Below, one piece after another: positions 3,690-62,336 of a stretch of DNA of 64,000 nucleotides; position 1 is the stretch's first letter, and each line of letters starts with the position of its first letter. This DNA comes from a virus (lineage: Duplodnaviria; Heunggongvirae; Uroviricota; Caudoviricetes). A program made the translations under genes and the position numbers. The notes under the pieces were generated by a model, which saw only the letters and a list, made by a program, of their open reading frames with translations, was not told where the DNA came from and ran no database searches. The stretch is from the IMG/VR virus record IMGVR_UViG_3300029976_000110; one strand, 5' to 3'.

Positions 3690-3942
3690 TTAATGAATCC
3701 AATGATCTCCTATTGAAATATCTGCACCTAAATTAACATTAGGACAAAATGGCTTACCTCCAGCAACCATACAGTCTACCAGTACTTTAGCCACTTCATC
3801 TTTCATTGATTCAGGACACTCCAAATTCCATTCATCGTGAGCAGGAACACACATTAAAACTTTGTCTTGATACTCATTTTTTACAATCCAATTGAAAAGT
3901 TTAATAGAAGCTAGTTTGAAGCAACAAGCTCCCCTATTTTGT
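3690..3942 (-). CDS. DNA polymerase family A, exon 3 (motif C and C-terminus)
   Basis: An in-frame segment the ORF track missed translates as ...QNRGACCFKLASIK...LMCVPAHDEWNLE...GDHWIH*. It contains the Pol A motif C (HDE) and the terminal H that are absent from the 4180..5694 ORF. Confidence 0.7.
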
Positions 3943-4189
3943 CATTTTGTTATCCTAGAGGTTCTTTATCCTCTAGCTCTGTATCTTCCTTTTCGATACA
4001 GCTCGGACTATATCTTAGTATATTTTTACAAAACATACTTTCCCTTTTCGTGGAATTTTACTCTCCCATTAGGAGTTCATATTCTAGTCTCTACACCTTC
4101 ACAATATTACTATTGTGCTTGGCTCGATATTCCCATCTCAAGGTTCATCGAATTTAGGGAATTTTAACAGGACACAAACTTACCATTTC
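3943..4189 (-). ncRNA. group I intron (ORF-less, ~247 nt) between DNA polymerase exons 2 and 3
   Basis: P1: exon ACAGGAU pairs with IGS GUCCUGU, with U.G at the splice site. P10: exon ACAAA pairs with GUUUGU just 5' of the IGS. R element GUAGAGACUAGA. S element UAAGAUAUAGUCC, identical to the Tetrahymena S block. P9/P9.1 hairpins present. Ends in a G before exon 3. Confidence 0.65.
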
Positions 4190-5753
4190 ATCCTGTAATT
4201 AATAGATTGCCTTTCAGAAGCGGATTTTCTTATATTAAACTTTCTTACTTCTTGAACAGTATCACAATAAGGAGATTCTTTCCGCATTTGCCAATAATAC
4301 GCAGAAAATTCTGGATCGTTTAGTTTGGCTGCCATCTTCTGTTGCCACTTTGCATCATAAATATGTGCTCGATGCCCAAGTACGGGATTCATTAGAATAT
4401 ATCCCTTACTCATTACTGCATATCTACAATAATCCTGGTACTTCTTAATACCAGGAAAAGCCTTCATAAAGTTGTTATATATTCTTTCTGCATCCTCTTT
4501 CTTGAATCCCTTATTAGCCATAAGTGTATGTGCATCTCCTCCATAGAATATGCCAAACTCGACCCCCTTGGAGTTCTGTCTAAGGTCTTTATGTTGGGCT
4601 TTAATTTCTTTATCAGTAAGACCTCCAAGAATATCTGGCCAACAGCTTCTAGCTACTTCACTATGTAGATCTCCTCCAGTGTTTAATATTTCTATCATCT
4701 TCGGATCATTTGCTACTGAGGCAGTAAGGCACGACTCTTGACCCGAATAGTCGCATGAGAGCCAAACATTGCCTTTTTCAGCTGTGAAACAAGACCTAGT
4801 GCCTTCATCATGTGGTAGGTTTTGCATATTTAATTTATAGACACCCCCACCACTGCTCAGTCTGGAAGTATCAGTTCCAATTGAATGAAGCTCAGGGTAT
4901 ATACGTCCAGTTTTTGGATTAATAGCTTTAAGCCAGTTCTCTCCATAGGTAGAAACTAACTTAGAAGCACCTTGATAACGAAGAAATAGAGATATAATCG
5001 GGAACTTACTTGCCTGCGGAGCTATTTGCTTTTCTTCGATAGACTTCTTTTCCTTTTTTGTCTTCTTATCAAAAGTTTTGCATTGGATTCCAAGTAATTC
5101 GAAGAGAGGAATAACTTGTTTAGAACTACTCCAACTTATAATACAGGCATATCCAGGTTGTACAAACCCAAATAAGTCTGGTTGGACATACTCTACAAAC
5201 TGCTTAAACTTTTGCTTATCAGAATTATATAAGTCGATAACATACTGATTGAGCTCTTGTAACGAGTTATCTAGCTCTTTTTGATCCTTTTCCATTTTGG
5301 CTTTCCAACGATCAACATCCAAATGAATCCCACAATATCGTGTATATGCTACTGCTTTTACAAACTCACACTCAAAGGCAGCGGCCTTAAATAATTGCTG
5401 TTTCTCTAATTCTTTACTTTGTTCAGCATAAATGTCTTCAATCCACATAACATCACCTGCCGCATACACTACTACTTCTTCAGTTAGACCTTCATTGATT
5501 ATCTTACCTCGAACAGTTTTATCAATGTCAATATTGCACCACCTTTGTGCAGCAGCTTTTAAAGAATAACTTAACTCCCAATACTTAATTAATCCATTAT
5601 CATCGAGTATTTGTTGATAGCCAAACTGCCCATCATATTGATCTACAGTAAGAGCTGCTGGCATCCCTAGGAAAATAACTTTATCAACAACCATCCCATC
5701 TATTATGTGTTTAGGGTAAATCTTCTGTACATACAGAAAGGTGAGATCAAATG
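4190..5753 (-). CDS. DNA polymerase family A, exon 2 (ExoIII and polymerase motifs A and B)
   Basis: YAAGDV (Exo III), TGRIYP..GTDTSRLSS, DYSGQESCL (motif A) and RQNSKGVEFGIFYGG (motif B). The ORF stops at ERQSINYRMKW*, just before where motif C should lie. In-frame sequence upstream of the annotated Met extends to ..AFDLTFLYVQ. Confidence 0.8.
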
Positions 5754-6492
5754 CTATTCTCTAATTCTTTCAAATTAGTATCGACTATATCATTAATCTT
5801 TTGATTCATATCCACTAACTTTTCAAACTTTATAAAATTTATATATTTTCTATCTAATTTTGCGTCATTAGAGTTTTTATACAAAATATGTAAGACTCTT
5901 AGAATTTCATCAATGCTGCTAATTCTAATACTATAATAGGTATTTTCCTTTTTTTTGTTTCTATTATAGAATAATTTACCTTTATCTCATTTAAAAAATT
6001 AGATAGTCCAAGTTTCATTGCCGAAGATCCAGTAGTAATATCTAAGTGAACGTCTTTAAATTTGCCAGAGGTATAAGTATAGGATAGACAACCATCTCCA
6101 TATTTTTCAGCAACCTCTTTTGCTTTAGTTCCAGATAAATATAAATCTTTAATCTCATCTACATATATTTGTAGATTTTTTCGTAAGTTAGTGTTTTCTT
6201 TTGTTCTCATAATTAAAATACTTGTTATATCGTTTTGATTTGATATACAAATATAAATATGAAAAACGAAATATCAAAAGATTATTGGGCACTTTTATTA
6301 AAAAATGATATTTTAATAAATTTCTGTTATTAAGAGAACTATATCCCTCAGATAGTCTGTGAGCTTTATACTAATGTATTAGTATCTTAGCTGCTGATTG
6401 TCCAATCTTTCTAATTATCACACTTGTATAGAAAGCTCTAAGGAGTTTCCAGCAATTCACCCAATTTTCTATTTATAATAGCTGCCATTTTG
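5754..6492 (-). mobile_element. group I intron (~739 nt) in the DNA polymerase gene, carrying an internal 103-aa ORF (5899..6210)
   Basis: P1: CUGU|caaaaug|GCAG with U.G at the splice site. P10: exon CAUUUG pairs with the loop CAAAAUG. R-like CACAGACUAUC. S block AAUGAUAUAGUCG followed by a P9 hairpin CUAAUU-ugaaag-AAUUAG. Ends in ..GAAUAG. Splicing rebuilds the Exo II motif as IGWNLS-FDLTFL. Confidence 0.65.
5899..6210 (-). CDS. intron-encoded small ORF (possible degenerate homing endonuclease or DNA-binding protein)
   Basis: 103-aa ORF lying wholly inside the predicted intron between the R-like and S elements. No clear HE motif recognised. Confidence 0.3.
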   Translation of the reverse strand: MRTKENTNLRKNLQIYVDEIKDLYLSGTKAKEVAEKYGDGCLSYTYTSGKFKDVHLDITTGSSAMKLGLSNFLNEIKVNYSIIETKKRKIPIIVLELAALMKF

Positions 6493-6772
6493 ACAGATTC
6501 CATCCGATAAATGTCCTCTCAGATTCTAGATATTCCTTTAATTGATTTTTTTCGTTTTTAGAAAGTGTCGACCAATCAAATACTACTTGATTTTCCTTGT
6601 TTCCCAGCTGAAGAGTTAAAATCTCTTTACTGTGGCAGTCGAGACCAGTAGTTTCACTATCCAGTTGCACTAAAGTAAGAGGATAAAGTACTTCCATGGC
6701 TCCGTGAAACTCAACTTGTTTATAATTCTCTGGACTAAATAGGCCCTTATTCCTGCTTACTAGATAAATCAT
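6493..6772 (-). CDS. DNA polymerase family A, exon 1 (3'-5' exonuclease motifs Exo I and II)
   Basis: LDSETTGLD (Exo I) and FIGWNLSK (start of Exo II). The unspliced ORF runs into WQLL*. Splicing after ..AAUCUGU restores G-W-N-L-S-F-D. Confidence 0.75.
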
Positions 6773-9051: not shown

Positions 9052-10418
9052 GCTTCGTCTTCTATATTTATTTCATCATTGTCAAGCTCAGCTTGCTCTT
9101 TATTAAGGAATTTAAAGCATTTTAGCTTGAACGCGCCTACTAGACCATTGTCTATCTTAATAACAAGACCTTCATGTGGCACTTTATTATCACAGTGAGG
9201 CGAGTTACACTCCATATAGAAACGTTTATCATTAGACAAACGCTCTATAAAGTCTTCACTCCAATGATCAGTAATTTCTATATCAGGATATAAATCCCCA
9301 GCTCTACCAACGTAACATTCTTCTACTGGAATTAATCCAACTCTAGCACACCACTGCTGTACTTGATGTGGAGTATACTCAAATGTAACTCCATCCACAT
9401 TAGTATATGTTACTCGATAGATACGTACTGCAAAATGCTTTTCAGGAGTATAAGACTCTCCTTCTTCTGGACGTAAGCATCCATAATCGTAGTTTTTCTG
9501 GATGTAATTACCGTTTGGTAAGAATCCTACTATTTCGTAGTAGATGGTTTGACCTTTAGCTAAACAAGGTCTTACAATCTTATCAGCTTCAGCCCAAACA
9601 TCTACTCCATAAAAACCACTACTTACCCCTTTATTATAATACTTATTCTTTATTACAGTTCTAGAAGCATATAGATAATCATATTTATCAAAATTATATC
9701 CAGTTAGCCATTTAGCTATCTTCTGCTTCCAATTAAGCGGTTGATGACATAAAACATATGCTGAAATACCACTACACCCATGAATTTTATAAGACATTTG
9801 GATAATAGAATCTGGTTGGATAGCCTGTGGTGCTTTCTTTATGATAATTGTATTATAATGAAATCTAAACTGAGTATCTATAACTTTATCAAGCCCTTTC
9901 TTTACTTTCTTAGTTGTTTTGCTCTCAGAGATTCTACTAGTATAGGTATTCTTAGGAATATATTTCTTACTAATCCAGAACTCTTTTGTTCCATTCTGTA
10001 AAGCGTCAAATTCAGTGCCTACTTCAAAAGGCTCTAACTCTTTATTAGTAACAGATACTATATAGTTAGATAGAACAGAAGCTGGAAGAATAAATCCTTC
10101 AGATAATTCTCCTCTTAACTTAATTGCTTTTACTCTACCATTGTCTTCAAACATTCCAGTTTGTTCAGGATTTGCATTTAGCTCCTTATGTTTATAAAGA
10201 TTTGCATAACGTAACAAGTCTGGGTTAATACAAGAGAGAACTGGAAAATAAATATATAACCCTGCTTCAGAGTCTATACCAGTAATAATATTAAATCCAT
10301 CAATAGTACAGCATTTTAACCGAGTTACCTCTGGATCAGAGTGCTTTCTGAAAGAAGTTATATTAACAATTTTAGATAGGTAGTTTTCACTAGCCCTTTT
10401 GCTTTTAATGAGATTCAT
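9048..10418 (-). CDS. RNA ligase, Rnl2-like nucleotidyltransferase (probable true start MNLIKSK at 10418; ORF track extends to 10508)
   Basis: Motif I SYKIHG (KxHG, Rnl2-type). Motif IV EGLVIK. Motif V GAFKLK. An RNA-ligase-like block GELSEGFILPAS lies 5' of motif I in the protein. Confidence 0.65.
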   Translation of the reverse strand: MNLIKSKRASENYLSKIVNITSFRKHSDPEVTRLKCCTIDGFNIITGIDSEAGLYIYFPVLSCINPDLLRYANLYKHKELNANPEQTGMFEDNGRVKAIKLRGELSEGFILPASVLSNYIVSVTNKELEPFEVGTEFDALQNGTKEFWISKKYIPKNTYTSRISESKTTKKVKKGLDKVIDTQFRFHYNTIIIKKAPQAIQPDSIIQMSYKIHGCSGISAYVLCHQPLNWKQKIAKWLTGYNFDKYDYLYASRTVIKNKYYNKGVSSGFYGVDVWAEADKIVRPCLAKGQTIYYEIVGFLPNGNYIQKNYDYGCLRPEEGESYTPEKHFAVRIYRVTYTNVDGVTFEYTPHQVQQWCARVGLIPVEECYVGRAGDLYPDIEITDHWSEDFIERLSNDKRFYMECNSPHCDNKVPHEGLVIKIDNGLVGAFKLKCFKFLNKEQAELDNDEINIEDEA

Positions 10419-10419
10419 A

Positions 10420-10641
10420 TTACTCTCCAGTGTATAGTTGCCATTTATGAGATAAAACAGCATCAATTTTAAATTCTTTGACCTTATAAGCCAACTCGCT
10501 TCGTCCATTTGGAGTACAAATTATATCACCATTTTTATCTTGGTAATAAAATCTTTCTACTCCATTAAGAGTTAGTGAAACTTCATTTCCATTAACCATC
10601 ATCCAGGACAATGCCTGGCTAAAATCATAGTTTGTGCTCAT
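10420..10641 (-). CDS. hypothetical protein
   Basis: 73-aa ORF. Its TAA overlaps the ligase ATG (TAATATG). Confidence 0.35.
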   Translation of the reverse strand: MSTNYDFSQALSWMMVNGNEVSLTLNGVERFYYQDKNGDIICTPNGRSELAYKVKEFKIDAVLSHKWQLYTGE

Positions 10642-10643
10642 AT

Positions 10644-10755
10644 TTAAATTATTTTAAGTCCAGAAGACTTTAGAAACTGTGTCATAAATGCTGCATAGGT
10701 TGAAGATTCAATTTCACTTGTTTCATCCCTATTATGAAATTGAAATACATGAAAG
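10644..10755 (-). CDS. small HExxH (zincin-like) protein, exon 2
   Basis: After the predicted 3' splice site AAAUG|CUUUCAUG.. the frame continues exon 1 as ..FWHE-IFHVFQFHNRDETSEIES...GLKII*. The join creates HEIFH. Confidence 0.45.
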
Positions 10756-11824
10756 CATTTATACTTCTTATTTCTAAGAAGATTAGACTATCCCTTCCTC
10801 CACTTTTGGAGGGTCTATTATAGTCGTTGAACATCTCATTTGTTTAAAACTAATAAATTTGTCATATTTCCTATTTAAATAAATTGTTGCATCTTTATAC
10901 ATATAATCAAACAAAGCTAAAGAATCTTTAACACTAAAGTTAAGTACATACACATTTTTATCTAGGTCTTGAAGTTTTACTATTTTTGATTTAGTTGGTA
11001 AATGTTTGGCTAAATCAATTAAAAATTGTTCAGATCCACTACAAAAACCACTTCTTAGTGTATAATAATTAGCTTTACTGCTATTTTTATAAACTCCAAC
11101 AGTTCCATCTCCATCAAAAAACCCTCTTATAAAATGTGGGATTAATGATTCTGGTATATTAGGAAATTGTATAGTTAATGATTTATTAGGGATGCAGCCT
11201 AAACTAATCAAAGAATTAGCTAATTGTACATCATTTATTCTTAAACAATTTATTTCTTTATTATATTTTTTATGAACTTCTTTAGTTAGATTCCCTGTAA
11301 AGTTAATATCTAAAATAAACTGCTTCATTAAATCACCATCGATACAATTCCATCTGACTGCCTTAGAATTATCTGTTTTTTCTTCAACACATCCGTCAGA
11401 ATACATAATTCCAAGCCAATATGCCTTATGTTCTGTGTCAATAATATCAAAGTAGGCACTATTAACAGAGTACTTCTTATAGCAACCCCTTTTCCTAAGA
11501 ACCCCTTTTTCAGACAAGAATTGACGCAATCTATTAGTACTAGTTTTTTCGAGTTTACATATAATGTGAACCCCTTTGTTTTGATTTACATAAAAATCTA
11601 AAATACGATCTTGCTGTTCTTTAGTATATTCTTTTTTCATAGTAATAAAAATTATTAATATTTATCACTACAAATATAATATACTTTATAGTTTTTCACA
11701 AATGATTTTGCTGCGGATTAACCAATTTTAACAATTATTACTAAAAATATAGTATGTTAAACTTTAGGTACTTCCCGCAATTTAAGACGTTTTACAAGTA
11801 TATTACTATACTAGGAGACCCTTG
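10756..11824 (-). mobile_element. group I intron (~1.07 kb) carrying a LAGLIDADG homing endonuclease
   Basis: P1: GAGAU|caagg|GUCUC. P4-like AAAUUGCGGGAA and Q-like AAUCCGCAGC. R GUUCAACGACUAUA. P8 CCUCC-aaaag-GGAGG. S GGGAUAGUC overlaps the HE stop. P9 CUUCUUA-GAAA-UAAGAAG. Ends in AAAUG. Confidence 0.6.
10783..11640 (-). CDS. LAGLIDADG homing endonuclease (double-motif)
   Basis: Two LAGLIDADG motifs: WLGIMYSDGCV and IRGFFDGDGTVGV. The ORF runs through the intron R/P8/S core. Confidence 0.8.
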   Translation of the reverse strand: MKKEYTKEQQDRILDFYVNQNKGVHIICKLEKTSTNRLRQFLSEKGVLRKRGCYKKYSVNSAYFDIIDTEHKAYWLGIMYSDGCVEEKTDNSKAVRWNCIDGDLMKQFILDINFTGNLTKEVHKKYNKEINCLRINDVQLANSLISLGCIPNKSLTIQFPNIPESLIPHFIRGFFDGDGTVGVYKNSSKANYYTLRSGFCSGSEQFLIDLAKHLPTKSKIVKLQDLDKNVYVLNFSVKDSLALFDYMYKDATIYLNRKYDKFISFKQMRCSTTIIDPPKVEEGIV

Positions 11825-12024
11825 ATCTCATGCCAGAAGGTATTATTAATTTGATCTTCAGTTAATTCAACTACTTCATCCTCGCTATCTAACTTTTTAA
11901 AGATAACAATTTCTTCTTTTGTACTATCATAATATCCAAATCTATTATCTCCACTATCATCTTTATCTTTAACAAGGATTTTTACAGTCTGACCTCCTAT
12001 TTCAAACTTTTCTGGAATTTTCAT
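11825..12024 (-). CDS. small HExxH (zincin-like) protein, exon 1
   Basis: ORF 11806..12024 (..QINNTFWHEIKGLLV*). The predicted 5' splice site after ..CAUGAGAU pairs with the IGS. Confidence 0.45.
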
Positions 12025-12123
12025 ATGTCATAATAATAAATTTAGTTAAAACTATATTTTATATTACAGCAAACATAGTGATTTATAAATTAAAAATCAA
12101 ATGAATTTATAGCTTTTTATATT

Positions 12124-13323
12124 TTATTCTAGATCTGGTCTAAAACATAAAAATCTTGGTTGTAACGGAACTCCAGAATCAGACAATGTAAAATATTTGC
12201 AATCACCTAAATGATCTTTATATTTATCGTTAAAGTTCTTAACATATTCTAATTTAGTTTCCCGATCTCCGATTGGCATTGCTTTGAATGTACGTCCATC
12301 AGACATTTGACAGATAAAACACATATCTTCCGTACCTCGTAAACCAAGCTCATAATCTATAATTAAGAAAGTGTCATCTAAATAATGCTTAATTTTAATC
12401 ATATCATTTGTGCGACCACCAACTTTATATGGACGACTAGGATCACGAATTACAACACCTTCAAATCCTTCAGACACAAATTGATCGTGTAATTTATCAA
12501 TATTATCCCAACCAGATACTTCTTCTTGATTTAAGATAAATATATGATCATTTATTTCATCACAAGAAGTGTCTATATAAGTTGGAATATTATAAAGGAT
12601 AGAGAATTGTGCTAAATGTTTAATTCTTTCTGAAGCTATCATGTCTGGAACATACATATCATATATCCAATACTGAAGCCATTCACAATCATAGGCATTT
12701 TTCTCCATTCTAGCTGCACCAGAGATTTGCTGAAGACTTTTAAATCGTTTGAATAACTCACCATCTAAAATAATATTTGGATGTTGTTCAAATAAAGTAA
12801 CTATTCTAGGATCTGTAAGGATATGTTGTGTAGAATAATTATATGTTTCCCCGCCTCTGCTAGCTGTAAGTATATTTCCATCCTTATAATATAGTAAACA
12901 ACGTACACCATCAAGCTTTCTACTAGCAATCCATGTTTTATCAAAGATTTTTCTATTAGTTACTTTATCAGCTTGTTTAGCTAACATTGGTTTAATGACA
13001 CCATATTGATTTGTCTTTACATCACCAAAGATAGTCTGCAATTCTTCAGTAGTATATTCATTAGGATGTTTCTCTACTTCAATGTAACCTTTATCAAGAT
13101 AGCCCTTTACAGTAGAATTATATTGTAACTCTAATTGTTCTCTCCAAGTTCTTTTTTGTTTGGTTCTATCTACAATTATCGGAGGGGATAAAGTTGTTTT
13201 ACCCCCTACCTGACCATAACTGCGTTGAATTACATACCCCGTATCATGCCATTCTTCATCAGATTCAACGATAGCAAATCTAAACTTACCAGTAGATGCT
13301 TTTCCTAACAGATATTTAATCAT
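12124..13323 (-). CDS. ATP-dependent DNA ligase
   Basis: Motif I KLDGVR, followed by TASRGGE, DGELF-like and OB-domain regions. 399 aa, comparable to T7 ligase. Confidence 0.75.
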   Translation of the reverse strand: MIKYLLGKASTGKFRFAIVESDEEWHDTGYVIQRSYGQVGGKTTLSPPIIVDRTKQKRTWREQLELQYNSTVKGYLDKGYIEVEKHPNEYTTEELQTIFGDVKTNQYGVIKPMLAKQADKVTNRKIFDKTWIASRKLDGVRCLLYYKDGNILTASRGGETYNYSTQHILTDPRIVTLFEQHPNIILDGELFKRFKSLQQISGAARMEKNAYDCEWLQYWIYDMYVPDMIASERIKHLAQFSILYNIPTYIDTSCDEINDHIFILNQEEVSGWDNIDKLHDQFVSEGFEGVVIRDPSRPYKVGGRTNDMIKIKHYLDDTFLIIDYELGLRGTEDMCFICQMSDGRTFKAMPIGDRETKLEYVKNFNDKYKDHLGDCKYFTLSDSGVPLQPRFLCFRPDLE

Positions 13324-14671: not shown

Positions 14672-15106
14672 TGTTTAAATATTTTATTAGTTCTTCTACA
14701 ACATTATCAGCTTCTGAATAGAAAGCCTTGATTGGTTTATCTCCTTTTGTTACAATAGCGAATGGATCTAATTTAGCACCCCAATGTCCTTTAAGTGCCC
14801 ATGCTTCTTTCTTCCCTTTCCTTGTTCTGATATCAATTAGAGTGACGTTCTCATAATCCTTTAATGGGAGAATTTGAGAATCATCACTATATGTCATTTG
14901 TACTGTAATCACAATAAACAAATACCGCAAATTAAACCGATAATCCCATCTACTATGAGTATAGTCATCAACCTTTTGTGGAAGGTAATAATATCACCTT
15001 TAATAAAAGTATAAATTTCTTGTGATAAACTATAATCCTCAGAGCTTCCTGCAATGCCTAACTTAGATAGACTAAGTATTATTAGTATTATACCAAGAAG
15101 TTTCAT
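14655..15106 (-). CDS. two small hypothetical proteins (14655..14930; 14909..15106, membrane)
   Basis: ORFs of 91 and 65 aa; the second is hydrophobic. Confidence 0.3.
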
Positions 15107-15609
15107 TTCTTATAAAATAAATATGTTTTATCCTCTAATCCATAAGTTCCATCGTGACAAAGTCTTACCTCATAGAACTTTTGATTAGTTGTTTCCTTAT
15201 CAAGGCCTCCTAATTCCTCTATATATGGACCAAGTTTGATAAAATTGAAGTTCTCTAATTCAATGTCTTTACTTAATTCTTGCCTTCCACTGTACCAACA
15301 AGTTAGTAATCCCAACCTATGTACATGATTAGCAAGATTATTAACTTCTTTAGGATTAACATCACCTCCCATAAAAGCAACACAAGTAATACCGTTGTTG
15401 ATATGAATTAGAGCATTTAAACTACCCCAATTAAGAGGATTTCCAATATCTTCTGCCAAGTAAGAGCTATGACAACCCTCACAATGACAGGGACAGTTAG
15501 AAATATTAATAGCAAGAGTTACTTCATTAGGAACTTCTTGAAACACTACTGCTGTATCAACATATTTCATTATTATATAATGTAATTTTACAAGTTTCGG
15601 TATCAACAA
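15103..15609 (-). CDS. nrdG: anaerobic ribonucleotide reductase activating protein (radical SAM, NrdG-like)
   Basis: CPCHCEGC fits CxxxCxxC. Sits immediately downstream of nrdD. Size and Gly-rich SAM-binding region fit. Confidence 0.65.
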   Translation of the reverse strand: MLIPKLVKLHYIIMKYVDTAVVFQEVPNEVTLAINISNCPCHCEGCHSSYLAEDIGNPLNWGSLNALIHINNGITCVAFMGGDVNPKEVNNLANHVHRLGLLTCWYSGRQELSKDIELENFNFIKLGPYIEELGGLDKETTNQKFYEVRLCHDGTYGLEDKTYLFYKK

Positions 15610-16236: not shown

Positions 16237-17516
16237 TTATTCAATAGTACTACTATACGTTCTATGATTGGCTTCAATTTGCCTATACTTATCAAAACCT
16301 TTAATAGGCCTAAGGAATCCGATCACCCTTGTCCATTGAGTCATCTCATGGCTTCCACAATTCGGACAAACAGTAAGGGGTTTCTTATAGATTTTTCCAC
16401 ACTTATCGCATTGTGTGTTAGGGATATTAAAAGTATAATAACAAGCTCCTACATTAAGAGCATGTTTCATTAACTTCTTATATTGTTCCTTACTTAAGTG
16501 ATCTTGTAGGTTTATATGAATTGCCTGCCCTCCTGATGATGCTTTAGCAATTTCCCCACCTTGTAGAACGAACTTATCCAGAACAGAAGTGTCATCATGG
16601 GCATCATAGATATAAGAGTTATAGAGAACTCTATTATCAGGTACTTTATAACCATCAGCTTTATCCCAATTATAATTCTTACTACCTAGACCTTCTGCAG
16701 GTACAATTTCTACATTTAACATAAAATCAGCAGTACTATTTGCAATGTTAAAATCTTGAATCGTTCTAAGAATAAAGGTTACAAAGTTCTTATAGTCCTC
16801 ATTGTTATTCACATTCAGGCCAACGAACATGGCTGCTTCATTAATACCGTTTATGCCAGTAGTACTAAAGAGCTTGTGAAAGTCAATAAATCCAGCATTT
16901 ACGCAGGAAAACATCTTCTTATCCGCCCATTCGTACAGAATAGTTTTATAAGCAATTTGATCTTTCTTAACTCTTTCTAGGATGTCTATTAAATAGTTAT
17001 GGAATTTATCCATGTTCCTATAAAAGTCATTATAGTCCATACCAGAAGTATATCCTCCTGTTCTAGCCCAATCTTGAATGATCCTATTTATATTAAGAGT
17101 AATAACATTACAACTTCCAGTACTAACTCCAGTAAGGCCAATAGTAGATGAGAATGTATTCTCACTTATTTCATTTCTCAGCCTACAACAACTAGCAACG
17201 GCATCAGAATTGTCAGATGTATATGCAAAGAAACTATGTCCTTCAGACCACATTTCTGCTGCAAAGTCGGCATATTCTTGATCTAGATATTCACCATCTT
17301 TACTAAGAAGACAAAGCGATTCAACAGGATAAGTAAGTAAAGTTTTGGTTCTTTCATTATTGAACCATCTCATGAATCGCTTCTGTATGAAACTAACTGC
17401 ATCCCAATTTAAAGTACTTCCATCAGGAAATACAAAAGCATCAAATAAGCTATGCCAATAAAACCTATCAAAATAATTAAAATTTACAACATTTATATTT
17501 AATGTAGTTCGTAAAG
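16237..17516 (-). CDS. nrdD: anaerobic ribonucleotide reductase NrdD, exon 2 (C-terminal part with Zn ribbon and glycyl-radical motif)
   Basis: C-terminus CDKCG..CPNCG then TRVIGFLRP (glycyl-radical RVxG motif). In-frame sequence upstream of the annotated Met continues the NrdD body (..NFNYFDRFYWHSLFD..). Confidence 0.75.
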
Positions 17517-17744
17517 CTACTCCTTTATGTTTCCATAAAGATTAGACTATATCATTACTCTCAATGAGAGACCTCCCACTTCCATCACCATTAACTTGTG
17601 ATGTACTCTACTCACTTCCATCTTGTTTAGATGTGTTTTCGATAGTCGTTGAACGTTCTTCTAATGAAGCTTCGTTGCTGATTATCCTCGACTCTACGTT
17701 AGGAGTTTCCAGCAATTCAAGAGGTTTTACGTCCGCATATTTTT
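17517..17744 (-). ncRNA. group I intron (ORF-less, ~228 nt) in nrdD
   Basis: P1: GUCCGU|aaaaauau|GCGGAC with U.G at the splice site. 5' block UGAAUUGCUGGAAACUCC is identical to the DNA polymerase intron 1. R GUUCAACGACUAUCG. S UAAUGAUAUAGUC. P9 CUUUAUG-GAAA-CAUAAAG. 3' splice site placed at GAGUAG|CUUUAC by analogy; the exact 3' boundary is uncertain by ~30 nt. Confidence 0.55.
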
Positions 17745-18642
17745 ACGGACTTTGATAACTTCTGTTCCCAGCAGGTTGATTTATAGAATAAACCACATTC
17801 TGGAATGCTTGGTCTATCTCATCACCTATTGTACGTTGATTACAACAAGCTGAGGTGGTTACTACAGTATCTGGATGAAGGTAAAAATCTTTTCCCCATT
17901 CTAACTCACAAAAATGAGTAAAGAAGTTAAAGAACTCTCCCACACCAACAGCTCCTTTGCATTGAGAGGAACATAAGAAGATTAGATTGATAAGTTGCCC
18001 GCAGAAACTCTTCAAGTTATGAGGAGGCTTAGTTCCAAGTCCGTCCATTACACTAGTTCCATGTAAAAGAAGTGGATAAAGAGTGATAGCTTGACAATAG
18101 AATTTGGGAACAGAAGTAGAACTTTCATCATGTGTGTAGATAATATGATGTTCTAGGTCTTTAACATACTGTTCCGCAACTTCTGGAAACATTTTCTTAA
18201 GCTTCTTTGTCATTCTACGCCTTTGTATTCTCCTATTTCTCTTTTTATAAACTTCACTCTCTAAATTAGCAACATTCTTTAATGATACATTAGCATTTCC
18301 ATCTGTTTCGGATGATGTGGCTGCGTTATCAGAACTCTCAGAGTATTCATCCATATATTTTAACCTATCTTCATCTTCTCTTTCAAGTTGATGGGTATAG
18401 CGATAAAGAATATAAGATTTAGCTACTTCATTATAGTCCCAATCCATTAAAAGCTCTTCTATCTGATCTTGAATATCTTCAACACTAATTTCATCCCAAA
18501 TTTGGACTTCATCTACAATTTTTGTCAATACATCTTCCCCAATATGAGTGTTTGTAGACAAAAAAGCCTTTTGAAGCGCACTCTCTATTCTAGTACGATC
18601 AAAAGGAACCAGATTTCCATTTCTTTTTCTTACTTTACACAT
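17745..18642 (-). CDS. nrdD: anaerobic ribonucleotide reductase NrdD, exon 1 (ATP-cone and N-terminal catalytic region)
   Basis: MCKVRKRNGNLVPFDRTRIESALQKAF is an ATP-cone signature. The unspliced ORF ends QSP*. Confidence 0.75.
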
Positions 18643-18699
18643 ATTTAATTTAATTAAAATTAGTATGTAAATATAATAAGAATATTTGAGATAAACAAA

Positions 18700-19479
18700 T
18701 TAAAATATTTCAAGAATTTGTCTCAAGAGAAGAGTTTTATCTACTTTATTAACAACATCTCTAGTATCATCAGTAATAGTTTGTGTCCAAGCATTATAGA
18801 TATTGAACATATTAGTACTATCGCCTACTTTTACATAATAAGGAGAATCTTCCTTTTCATATAAAAGTTTATAAGCGTCAATAGCTGCACTCGTGGCTAA
18901 TTTTACTTTGTTTCCTCCTATCAAGGATGCACAACTAAGAGTATTACGAACCCACTTACCTAAATTTTGGTTGATAGCAGTATCGTTATAAGCAACTTCC
19001 ATTGCTTCTAACTGTTTTAGTTTGTTTCCAATATCTAAAACTTTGTTAATCATTGATTCTACACATGAAAAATCAATAGGAGTCTCAGGTTCTAGCTCCT
19101 GAACACACAAATCTGTTGGATTAAAGACGCATAAGTTGGTGCACGCACAGTTAAGGCCCGAAACAAAAATTTTCGATATAGGTTTACGTGTATCAAGACC
19201 ATATACCATTCCAACAACCCGAACATGGTTATTATAACCAATATCATCAGGTAATACTGCTTGAATATACAGTCTATTATATACTATATCATCAAAGTTT
19301 ATATCTCCTTCTCGAGTAAGACTTATCTGGTTTGGAAGAATTGCCTGAATCCTAAAGTCATCTGTATATTTTGAAAGTCTATCTAAGAAAGGTGTTACAT
19401 ATTGTTCTGCGCTGTAATACTCCTTACCTTTTATTTTAGTTGGTTTACCCTTTAGTAGTTCATTAATAGTGATGTCCAT
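18700..19479 (-). CDS. hypothetical protein
   Basis: 259-aa ORF. Confidence 0.35.
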   Translation of the reverse strand: MDITINELLKGKPTKIKGKEYYSAEQYVTPFLDRLSKYTDDFRIQAILPNQISLTREGDINFDDIVYNRLYIQAVLPDDIGYNNHVRVVGMVYGLDTRKPISKIFVSGLNCACTNLCVFNPTDLCVQELEPETPIDFSCVESMINKVLDIGNKLKQLEAMEVAYNDTAINQNLGKWVRNTLSCASLIGGNKVKLATSAAIDAYKLLYEKEDSPYYVKVGDSTNMFNIYNAWTQTITDDTRDVVNKVDKTLLLRQILEIF

Positions 19480-22967: not shown

Positions 22968-23056
22968 TTTGTTTCATTAAGCTCGTTAAACTTAATGCTT
23001 GGGGCTGTATGTTACCATACAGATCAGATCATGTCATTATCCTATTAGGATATTTC

Positions 23057-24073
23057 CTATTTCGTTTCACTTGAAACTACGTCTTTCGACTGATCGTTGA
23101 ACATTTTGTGATAAATTTGTTTTACTTTTTGTAAAAATTGATCTTTAGTATAATCTAATTTCATTCGATTACATTGTGGGCAACAGGATACACAATTATC
23201 AATAGTATATCCTTTAGAGGAATCAATTCTATCGATTCCATTTACATATACTAATTTATCAGAAGTTTTCCTTTTTCCTGATTTGTTCCACATATTATCA
23301 GCTGTAGGAGGTTCACCACAATAATAACAGTTTCCATGTATGAGTTTAGAATATTCTTCTAAACTCAATTTAAAAGGTTTCTGTTGTCTAGTAGGATATT
23401 TCTGATTATCTGCAATAATTTTACTAGAGTAATAAGAATACATTCTTTCTTCAATAGGAGCATACATTCCTATTTTAGTCCTTCCAAACGCAGCCTTTTC
23501 AGAATAAGGGTGTTCACAATAATAACAGGTATCTTTTTTATGTTTTTTCATATTAGTTATTAATTGAGATTGTTCCTTTCCACATTTTGTACATCGAACA
23601 ATCCATTCATTACCCTTAACTAGTCTAATTAACTCATAGCAATTACCTATTATTTGTCCAGGTTTATATTTTCTAGATTTGTGAACCTCGGGTTTACAAT
23701 ATTTACAATATTGGGGAGATTCTCGTTTATAATCTAATAATCTAGATCCAGAAATTTCAAACTGCCTATGGCAATTTAAGCATTCTATAAGATATTTGTT
23801 TGTACCTGAACCTAAGTAACCAATTACTTTCAAATTTCCATAAATAGATCCATTTGGGTATGTTTTAGAATTAAAGAGAGCACCACACTCTTTACACTTA
23901 TCTAATTTTTCATATTTATGAATATCTGACCGTACAATTAAAAATTCTGCGCCACATTTAGTACATTTAACTTTCCATCTTTGTGTTTCTGGAAACTCTT
24001 CAATGAGTTCTAGTGGTCCTACAATAAGACCTTTGTAAAATTTTTTATCACAACTTTGCTGCAAATTGTCCAT
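23057..24073 (-). CDS. HNH homing endonuclease with multiple CxxC zinc-finger repeats
   Basis: C-terminal HNH core NGIDRIDSSKGYTIDNCVSCCPQCNRMK, plus repeated CxxC..CxxC pairs in the N-terminal half. Confidence 0.7.
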   Translation of the reverse strand: MDNLQQSCDKKFYKGLIVGPLELIEEFPETQRWKVKCTKCGAEFLIVRSDIHKYEKLDKCKECGALFNSKTYPNGSIYGNLKVIGYLGSGTNKYLIECLNCHRQFEISGSRLLDYKRESPQYCKYCKPEVHKSRKYKPGQIIGNCYELIRLVKGNEWIVRCTKCGKEQSQLITNMKKHKKDTCYYCEHPYSEKAAFGRTKIGMYAPIEERMYSYYSSKIIADNQKYPTRQQKPFKLSLEEYSKLIHGNCYYCGEPPTADNMWNKSGKRKTSDKLVYVNGIDRIDSSKGYTIDNCVSCCPQCNRMKLDYTKDQFLQKVKQIYHKMFNDQSKDVVSSETK

Positions 24074-41995: not shown

Positions 41996-42071
41996 ATTAT
42001 TAAAATTTATTGAATCGTTATAAATCGATAGCAAAGTAATATAGAAAACGATACTATATCTATTAATAAAG

Positions 42072-42154
42072 TCCGCGTGAGGAGATTCAAACTCCCAATC
42101 CACAAGGGCCCCGAAGTTTAAGTTCGGTCTGTATATCAATTCCAGCACACGCGG
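42072..42154 (-). tRNA. tRNA-Leu (anticodon UAA), long variable arm
   Basis: Acceptor CCGCGUG/CACGCGG, discriminator A73. Anticodon arm CCGAA-CUUAAAC-UUCGG. T-arm GGGAG-UUUGAAU-CUCCU. 14-nt variable region. Confidence 0.6.
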
Positions 42155-43871: not shown

Positions 43872-43890
43872 ATTTTTACTTGTATAATTG

Positions 43891-43962
43891 TCTCCCTAGC
43901 AGGAATCGAACCTACATCTATAATTTAGAAAAATATTGCTCTATCCATTGAGCTATAGGGAG
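43891..43962 (-). tRNA. tRNA-Arg (anticodon UCU)
   Basis: Acceptor CUCCCUA/UAGGGAG. D-arm GCUC-AAUGGAUA-GAGC. Anticodon loop UUUCUAA. T-arm GUAGG-UUCGAUU-CCUGC. Confidence 0.7.
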
Positions 43963-61313: not shown

Positions 61314-62221
61314 TTGTTTTTAACTTTCACTTAAAACTCTTCTTAAAAGAGATCCTCTTAGAAAGTACTGGATTTTGGTTAAAATTTAATTAGTGGAACA
61401 TTCTCTTTTAAAGTGAGAGAATATGACAACACTGGTATACCTGATTATAATTAATTTCGTCTTAATTTTCAAAGACTCGTCAGAGGTACTTTTCAGTGTT
61501 AAATATTTGAGTTTTAGTTAATTATTGTTTCATTATTTAAAAAGATAAAATTAAGATTTAATTTGAGAATAAGAGTTTTTTGTAGTGTTGGGGCTGTGGG
61601 GTGTATTTACCCACCTTTCAGCCTATCTCCAACCCAAAAATTTCGACTTTATCTGCCAACGTCAATTTGCAGATTAGCTCAATTTTTTTAAAAACAGTTT
61701 GGCGAATTTCACAATCCACCAAACCAAATCCTAAAAACCATTCAAATTATCCCGAAATCAAAAACAAAAACAAAGTTTCTTTTCACAGTCAATATTTCAG
61801 CTCGAATTTCCGATAGGAAAGTTTGAAACAGTCAAATGAAACTGACTGTAACGCTTCCATTACAACTAGTTTTATCCAATTCTTTAGTTCCAATAATCCA
61901 TTAATCTTCGAATTTGATACTCATGTATCATTAAATTGACTTTATAAGCAAATAATTGCACAAGTTTATCAAATAATGATTCATTTGTAATTGTACTTAT
62001 AGCTTTCAAGCATTGATGTATTTCTATCGAATTTAATTCATTATTTGCTTTAAGATGATTAATAGCATTAGTTATTACTGTAATTGTATCATTAGACTTT
62101 ACAGCTTCTGAAATACAGTAATTTCTTCTCTTAAAAGTTCTATTCGTTCATACTCGGTAAAAAACATTTTCTGTGTCATATTGTTTTAATTTAAAGTGTT
62201 ATTATCAAACTATTTACATAG

Positions 62222-62270
62222 GTTCGTCCAAGTCTCATCAATGATAATTTTAACGACTCCTTAGCTGTCG
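62222..62270 (-). repeat. conserved ~48-nt intergenic element, copy B
   Basis: See copy A. Lies 67 nt 3' of 62337..62669. Confidence 0.5.
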
Positions 62271-62336
62271 ATGTATTTTCTACTAAAAATAAATATGACT
62301 TACATAAAAGCAAAGGGAGCTAATGCTCCCAATGCC

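Follow-up and report, generated by a model that had tools for sequence, protein, structure and literature searches.

An intact group I intron lacking an open reading frame in the nrdD gene of an AT-rich gut-type phage

The window analyzed here is a stretch of 64,000 nucleotides (nt) from a tailed virus of the class Caudoviricetes (IMG/VR record IMGVR_UViG_3300029976_000110), an AT-rich phage of gut type (G+C content 32.8%) whose NrdD and DNA polymerase A proteins are nearest to those of crAss-like phages, at 40-54% amino-acid identity. Its nrdD gene is on the minus strand, as are all the elements of the gene and its intron described below, and consists of two exons separated by a group I intron of 255 nt (17490..17744), recognized by a match to the Rfam model RF00028 and delimited by comparison with two intron-less homologs, L001 and L002. 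Exon 1 (17745..18642) encodes residues 1-299 and the first base (U) of the Phe300 codon, that is, the ATP-cone and the N-terminal part of the NRDD domain, whereas exon 2 (16237..17489) runs from the last two bases of that codon to the stop and carries the SCCRLRN cysteine site, the Cys4 ribbon and the TRVIGFLRP motif. Gene callers break this gene into two open reading frames (ORFs), one of 299 amino acids (aa; 17743..18642) that ends ...NQPAGNRSYQSP* with the UAA stop at 17743-17745, and one of 378 aa (16237..17373) that starts MRWFNNE; with the corrected junction, a single 716-aa enzyme is obtained. Both halves share one reading frame, because the length of the intron is a multiple of three, and the translated insert between them contains three stops.

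The host gene encodes a class III (anaerobic) ribonucleotide reductase (RNR). The joined protein matches the Pfam profiles for the ATP-cone (E=1.7e-19) and for NRDD (E=5.7e-77, profile positions 7-560 of 562), and the spliced translation shows both the CxxC...CxxC zinc ribbon and the RVIGFLRP glycyl-radical motif. Neither exon is damaged: every NrdD motif is present, and there is no frameshift or stop. The earliest in-frame start codon of exon 2 is Met338, so that separate translation of this exon would drop the conserved residues 300-337.

With respect to the boundaries of the insert, a search of the protein collection with the joined protein returned many uninterrupted NrdD homologs (best identity 85-86%), all of which read ...NQPAGNRSYQSPF(V/T/I)NFNYFD, i.e., QSPF(V/T/I)NFNYFD, at the corresponding position, and the DNA of L001 and L002 was used to place the ends. 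The DNA of L002 (85% aa identity) matches that of the window exactly over the 48 nt that precede the insertion point and the 24 nt that follow it, reading ...CAAAGTCCGT|TTGTAAATTTTAATTATTTTGAT across it (also written CAAAGTCCGT|TTGTAAATTTTAATTA; the intron-less site as such is CAAAGTCCGTTTGTAAATTTTAAT). The window insert starts AAAAATATGCGGAC and finishes AAATATAAATG (or, in the other notation, AAAAATAT...AAATG), with flanks identical to those of L002. Given that the first inserted base is A as opposed to the T that follows the insert, and that the last inserted base is G as opposed to the T that precedes it, the boundaries cannot slide. The insertion is thus in phase 1 of the Phe300 codon (U|UU), within the conserved block QSP-F-VNFNYFD. 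The 3' splice site is AAAUG|UUGUAA, where the terminal guanosine, G17490, is the last base of the insert relative to the intron-less allele.

Positions 17523..17799(-) align with model positions 1-253 of Rfam RF00028 (Intron_gpI) at 78.1 bits (E=4e-18), where the gathering score is 50. This is the sole group I match above threshold in the window, and it takes in the conserved core with its P3-P8 and P4-P6 domains. In the numbering used here, the window coordinate equals 17745 minus the intron position. P1 (17731..17750) is formed by the exon end GUCCGU (17750-17745, exon -6 to -1) and the internal guide GCGGAC (17736-17731, intron 9-14), with a U17745.G17736 wobble at the 5' splice site and an 8-nt loop, AAAAAUAU. 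There is no P2. P3 (CCUCUU 17724-17719 / GGGAGG 17577-17572; intron 21-26/168-173) encloses the elements from P4 to P7.2. The Rfam alignment places P4 at 17714-17709/17681-17676 (intron 31-36/64-69) and P5 at 17704-17701/17688-17685 (intron 41-44/57-60), and these are followed by P6 and P6a (17675-17653, with an AUUA loop; P6 at intron 70-71/91-92 and P6a at 76-79/84-87). The R element, an exact GUUCAACGACUAUCG (17640-17654), includes the 5' strand of P7 (GACUAU 17647-17642 / AUAGUC 17550-17545; intron 98-103/195-200), which is predicted to be the guanosine-binding helix. The P7.1 hairpin (17633-17619; intron 112-116/122-126) and the P7.2 hairpin (17603-17583; intron 142-147/157-162) are linked by the conserved J7.1/7.2 segment GAGUAGAGUA (within 17583..17633). 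The P8 hairpin CUCUC AUU GAGAG (17570-17558; intron 175-179/183-187) is followed by J8/7 and by the S element (17544-17554), which bears the 3' strand of P7. Farther downstream are P9 (17523..17540; intron 205-211/216-222), a 7-base-pair stem capped by a GAAA tetraloop, a terminal hairpin, GUAG-CUUUACGAA-CUAC (17520-17504; intron 225-228/238-241), that the earlier sequence-only reading of this DNA had overlooked, and a 3' tail (within 17490..17520), AUUAAAUAUAAAU, that runs to the terminal G17490 (G255). A P10 pairing would join UGU at exon +2 to +4 (17486..17488) to AUA in the P1 loop (17740-17738); it would comprise three pairs only, U-A, G.U and U-A, and thus appears weak but consistently placed. 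Minimum-free-energy folding of the exon end together with the intron recovers P1, P4, P5, P6a, P7.2 and P9, with a z-score of -3.3 relative to shuffled sequences. The longest stop-free stretch on the sense strand of the intron is 44 codons, so that no endonuclease fits in it.

Further support for this structure comes from relatives of the intron. IMG/VR was scanned for the R element, which yielded more than 120 phage loci; these were ranked by nhmmer with the window intron, and 26 family introns were aligned by MAFFT without being fitted to any structure, after which the structure of the window intron was counted on the alignment. Standard pairs are formed in 87.3% of the cells, compared with 36-46% when the 3' partners are slid by one to three columns, and both sides of the pair have changed in 38 of the 55 pairs, values that none of 500 shuffles reached; the observation is real and far beyond chance. 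Compensatory changes back P3 (98% of cells paired, with both-side changes in 5 of 6 pairs), P4, P5, P6 and P6a (97-100% paired; in P6a, all 4 pairs are compensatory), P7.2 (96-100% paired) and P9 (96% paired, with compensatory changes in 5 pairs). The R element is invariant in the 26 members, as is GAUAUAGUCU in the P8-J8/7-S region across the family alignment. When anchored segments were folded separately, a hairpin was found at the P7.1 position in 24 of the 26 relatives, and in nearly all of them P7.2 and P8 hairpins of variable sequence flank a single-stranded GAA..GGGAGG that contains the 3' strand of P3. A homologous terminal hairpin, whose loop is UA(A/G)CGAA, also recurs in relatives, followed by an A/U-rich tail with G as its last base.

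Moreover, a hidden Markov model (HMM) of the family matches the introns of the T4 genes nrdD, nrdB and td (E=4e-17 to 2e-11), all three of which are proven self-splicers. Additional helices P7.1 and P7.2 mark subgroup IA of the group I introns, and in the window intron both follow the 5' strand of P7 and precede the 3' strand of P3. We accordingly describe this intron as an IA2-like phage type, the finer rank within subgroup IA (IA1, IA2 or IA3) being tentative. The 19-mer UGAAUUGCUGGAAACUCCU, which spans the end of P3, J3/4, P4, J4/5 and P5, recurs exactly at 6441-6459(-), within the putative first intron of the DNA polymerase gene, where 0.02 matches are expected by chance. This is the most conserved stretch of the family, and the 19-mer therefore marks family membership rather than a recent copy.

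Much of this had been anticipated from the letters alone. The sequence-only reading had proposed that a small ORF-less group I intron interrupts nrdD in an AT-rich phage; that the two halves share a frame with stops in between; that the ATP-cone half occupies 17745..18642, which is borne out by the L002 base at the exon end and by the Pfam match; that the C-terminal half carries TRVIGFLRP; and that the insert has a clean P1 with U.G at the splice site, R and S blocks, a P9 hairpin with a GAAA tetraloop, a weak P10 and 19 nt in common with the first polymerase intron. All these points stand. It had also named a covariance-model search as a check, which gave the Rfam match far above the gathering score, and had held that inability to fold the insert into a P3-P7 core would count against an intron; a P3-P9 core supported by the family was found.

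Taken together, these observations make it very probable that the insert at 17490..17744 is a functional group I intron. Under this scenario, nrdD would be transcribed as a single pre-mRNA in which the exon end GUCCGU pairs with the guide GCGGAC to form P1, presenting the U.G pair at the 5' splice site, while the P3-P9 core folds around the conserved P7 helix. Exogenous guanosine would then attack after U17745, and the freed 3'-OH of exon 1 would attack after the terminal G17490, aided by the short P10. The two transesterifications, expected of an intact, covarying ribozyme between intact exons, would yield a ligated mRNA with the junction ...CAAAGUCCGU|UUGUAAAUUUUAAU, reading ...CCG U|UU GUA... 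and encoding the 716-aa NrdD with QSPFVNFNYFD. Translation of the unspliced RNA would terminate at the UAA that spans the 5' junction.

Several considerations weigh against this scenario. Splicing of the window nrdD is predicted from the intactness of the ribozyme and the exons. P7 pairs in 99% of cells but does not vary within the family, and hence contributes no covariation signal, and the columns of P7.1, P8 and the terminal hairpin pair poorly (48-73%) in the MAFFT alignment, which we attribute to register errors in length-variable regions, although the alignment count itself does not show so. Folded in isolation, the 3' strand of P3 (GGGAGG) pairs with the 5' strand of P8 (CUCUC) at 17558-17577(-), and an alternative or misfolded state of the intron via this pairing is possible. 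P10 has only three pairs, one of them G.U. Furthermore, the intron has no endonuclease of its own that would account for its arrival and persistence.

The shortness of P10, the missing endonuclease and the predicted status of splicing would also fit a splicing-dead relic, with nrdD being either a pseudogene or the source of two separately made polypeptides that assemble. RNR genes that are split and yet functional in the absence of splicing are indeed known, an example being nrdA of Aeromonas phage Aeh1, which is split by a homing endonuclease gene (PMC3653736). We nevertheless consider a relic improbable, because the core is intact in all its helices, as are the R and S elements, the U.G wobble and the terminal G, all in agreement with the family consensus, the exons contain neither a frameshift nor a stop, and polypeptide synthesis from exon 2 could begin no earlier than Met338, at the cost of residues 300-337 of the conserved core.

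Retaining the functional intron, one can ask whether its 3' end could be placed elsewhere. The sequence-only reading put the intron at 17517..17744 (228 nt), with a 3' splice site at GAGUAG|CUUUAC that it flagged as uncertain, the C-terminal half at 16237..17516 and a joined product of 725 aa. G17517 preserves the frame and comes after the P9 hairpin, and the Rfam match itself stops at 17523. However, the product would then contain 10 additional residues (QSP-SLRTTLNINV-VNFNYFD) that are found in none of about 120 homologs among the matches listed, the intron-less L002 DNA joins exactly at 17745|17489, and the extra 27 nt make up the terminal hairpin and tail, both of which are conserved across the family as well as in the intron of T4 nrdD. 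In addition, three related introns inserted at the same site in other phages, discussed below, finish directly before the UU of the Phe codon. We therefore regard the 228-nt junction as very unlikely: the splice site is 27 nt further downstream, exon 2 is 16237..17489 and the product has 716 aa. Alignment of the joined protein to NrdD, a check that had likewise been proposed, pinpoints the junction residue as Phe300 but does not accommodate the 725-aa product. Splicing at the wrong G would thus predict 10 spurious residues. The in-frame alternative G17520 was also tried and rejected, since it leaves 10-11 residues that, as with G17517, occur in no homolog.

A contig of 2075 nt from the JGI sample 3300029966 (L138), found via protein look-up, is 100% identical to window positions 16744-18818 and spans the intron, so that the interrupted allele is not an accident of assembly. 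Exact scans for the 5'-junction pattern in IMG/VR and in JGI metagenome contigs, and for a gapped 3'-junction pattern in the JGI metagenome contigs, gave no match. Inteins are common in nrdD of related phages, but an intein, an intergenic spacer, an assembly artifact or translational bypass is effectively refuted as an explanation of the insert by its three in-frame stops and lack of intein motifs, the position of the relatives' inteins at a different site (SCC|RLRN), the independent contig and the decisive covariance-model score.

Group I introns in phage nrdD genes are an established phenomenon, of which the window locus is a new, cleanly delimited case. The sequence-only reading drew a parallel to the T4 nrdD (sunY) intron, which holds for the gene and the intron class but does not extend to the site. 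The T4 intron (group IA2, encoding I-TevII) is in the same gene, in phase 1 and in the same AFQ...Y...Q(S/T)PF block, belongs to the same structural family (family HMM E=3.7e-17) and has a terminal hairpin with a UAGCGAA-type loop like that of the window intron. In contrast to the 255-nt ORF-less intron described here, it is 1033 nt long and contains a GIY-YIG endonuclease gene. For the comparison of sites, T4 nrdD was retrieved and its splice junction reconstructed. A tblastn search with the window NrdD aligned only the C-terminal ribbon of the T4 protein; the host proteins being too diverged for BLAST, the site was placed by multiple alignment. Deletions of 1033 nt with U before the deletion and G at its end gave two candidate junctions, of which we chose the one giving ...FQAYEYEVNTLFSS..., taken to be the sequence of T4 NrdD; the other shifts the T4 site by only 2 codons and does not alter the conclusion. 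The T4 intron splits Tyr180, which corresponds to Tyr285 of the window protein and precedes the Phe300 site by 15 codons (45 nt). The nucleotide positions are thus not homologous, and the two introns are independent insertions, parallel rather than orthologous.

Other phages provide further context. In a megablast search of the gene against GenBank phages, only the intron core was hit, in Staphylococcus phages, and no close genome was found. The introns of Twort/K-like Staphylococcus phages (Intron_gpI, e.g., PV017447) are 91-97% identical to the window intron over 37-46 nt, a similarity confined to the catalytic core (the 3' strand of P8, J8/7, P7 and P9); these introns are small and of the same class but interrupt other genes, in phages of Gram-positive hosts. 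Among sequenced phages, nrdD is the RNR gene most often split (PMC3653736). Closer in ecological and host setting, that is, gut Bacteroidota, are the crAss-like and the Jug phages. The crAss-like phages of the Delta and Zeta groups are rich in group I introns and inteins, and the survey in question detected introns mostly via endonuclease domains (PMC7886860), so that ORF-less copies such as the one in the window would be missed. Of 104 genomes of the Bacteroides-infecting Jug jumbo phages, 95 have a fragmented nrdD; the group I introns of these phages have a mean length of about 206 nt, and the splicing of nrdD is backed by metatranscriptome reads (PMC12880540).

Homologous introns that share the insertion point to the base, splitting the Phe codon of Q-S-(P/A)-F after its first base, were detected at three other loci, namely IMG/VR 3300035501_000607 (L010), IMG/VR 3300014937_000003 (L019) and the Prevotella megaphage Lak-C1 (MK250029, L137), the last two with matching exon-2 proteins, for which reason L019 may be a Lak-type fragment. 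Segment by segment, the NrdD proteins of these hosts are about 33-53% identical to that of the window. Exon 1 ends ...AGU CCG U in the window, ...CAG AGU GCG U in L010 and ...UCA GCA U, with an in-frame UAG ahead of it, in both Lak-C1 and L019, and the guides change in concert, so that P1 is GUCCGU/GCGGAC, GUGCGU/GCGCAC and GUCAGCAU/GUGCUGAC, respectively; both sides have changed at 4 of the 6 P1 positions among these copies, with the U.G wobble retained. The 3' junctions read ...AAAUG|UUGUAAAU in the window, ...ACG|UUACUAAU in L010 and ...AAAAAUG|UUGUAAAU in Lak-C1 and L019. Thus, the P1 geometry and a 3' tail ending ...AUG|UU or ...ACG|UU are shared with the window intron, to whose core those of the three introns are homologous (nhmmer E=3.5e-9 for L010). 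In L010, P10 occurs in the same register, with UACUA at exon +2 to +6 and UAGUA just 5' of the guide (5 base pairs). The three introns differ from the window copy in a longer P5 extension and in an ORF with HNH-type features in the P1 loop, where the window copy has 8 nt and no endonuclease. In L010, this loop is about 1 kb and contains a 325-aa HTH+HNH ORF (Pfam HNH 31 bits); in L019 and Lak-C1, the loop contains an ORF with HNH-type motifs, read from the sequence only. Accordingly, the window copy appears to be an immobile derivative, or an endonuclease-free form, of a family with HNH-bearing members at the same site. Exon 1 of the Lak-C1 gene (L137 2560-2600) contains an in-frame TAG (GGA TTA TAG TCA GCA T) where relatives have Gln, which we take to reflect stop-codon recoding in this megaphage.

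Conceivably, the Phe codon of Q-S-(P/A)-F is a cross-lineage homing hotspot for a single IA2 family, the mobile form of which carries HNH in the P1 loop, with the window copy being a recently acquired or streamlined derivative devoid of the endonuclease; we offer this as a tentative proposal that we stop short of favoring. If true, it would mean invasion of phages as unlike as the 540-kb Lak megaphages and an AT-rich relative of the crAss-like phages, whose genomes are about 100 kb. An intron-less nrdD allele in the same metagenome sample would fit the proposal: L002 comes from the JGI sample 3300029966, the source of L138. The window and L002 genes (L002 8859-11006) are 82% identical, and the longest exact run between them, 73 nt (the next are 50 and 39 nt), is centered on the insertion site (window 17465-17793 compared). 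This run might reflect a co-conversion tract or a preserved homing site, and we treat it as only a hint because the protein motif encoded there is also highly conserved.

Inteins occur in many NrdD homologs (P0005, P0081, P0086, P0103 and L139), mostly at SCC|RLRN, and none coincides with the intron site. The nearest PolA relative (L139, MT835492.1, 2706-3742) contains an intein, and its Phe site is free of an intron. The L010 gene combines a mini-intein at GA|CAV (L010 238-1638) with three intervening sequences, at the Phe site, at TFPV|ES, where the insert reaches the Rfam group I threshold, and at VP|AE, where the insert is uncharacterized; nrdD of L007 is also interrupted at VP|AE. The first 81 residues of NrdD, the ATP-cone, are about 96% identical to those of the window in two IMG/VR contigs, 3300017492_000020 (L007 3001-3243) and 3300029967_000080 (L011 3001-3243). 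Similarity in the remainder of the L007 protein is much lower (46% over residues 1-563, the near-identical start included), which suggests that the ATP-cone module may have been exchanged between divergent nrdD genes.

The window locus adds a well-defined case to the phage RNR genes, including those of gut Bacteroidota phages, that are favored by group I introns and inteins, and shows that phages of very different lineages have related introns, some with an HNH endonuclease and some lacking it, at one and the same nrdD codon. It changes no concept, and offers a small, tractable system for the study of intron gain, endonuclease loss and exon co-conversion.

Downstream of nrdD, at 15103..15609 on the minus strand, there is a probable nrdG (activase) gene with a CxxxCxxC motif and a weak Fer4_12 match below the Pfam cut-off; the position is also occupied in relatives. 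Two additional group I introns appear to interrupt the family A DNA polymerase gene at 3700-6772(-). The first (approximately 5695-6472), located between ORFs of 99 aa and 504 aa, is the one that shares the 19-mer; it has a sub-threshold Rfam match (34.3 bits, 6285-6464) and contains a 103-aa ORF (5899-6210) for which Pfam gives no match. The second candidate has an Rfam score of 29 bits at 3984-4223.

A probable fourth intron of about 1069 nt, at 10756-11824(-), would interrupt a small gene (ORF 11806-12024). Its P1 would be GAGAU/GUCUC, and joining ...CAUGAGAU|CUUUCAU restores an HEIFH (HExxH) motif. The candidate further shows a P3/P4-like AAAUUGCGGGAAG, an R element GUUCAACGACUAUAA, GGGAUAGUCUAAUC, a GAAA-capped P9 and the tail UAUAAAUG, and it holds a LAGLIDADG_3 ORF (10783-11640, Pfam 29.3 bits). 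An Rfam scan of 9500-13000 did not detect it, and the assignment is based on these elements. A weak nhmmer match (E=0.32) to positions 184-241 of the nrdD intron, at 22978-23063(-), receives no support from Rfam and may be due to chance.

Finally, the window contains two matches to the RAGATH-1 hammerhead ribozyme in Rfam, about 1.6 kb apart, at 60542-60640(-) and 62203-62271(-), which score 72.8 and 60.4 bits, both above the gathering score of 56.3. Phage tRNA genes, all on the minus strand, are located at 42071-42154, 43890-43962, 56502-56574, 57428-57501, 59280-59351 and 54250-54335; those recognized by ARAGORN are Leu(taa), Arg(tct), Met(cat) and Gln(ttg), and Rfam contributes the tRNA at 59280-59351 (42.7 bits) as well as a weak match at 54250-54335 (33.2 bits).

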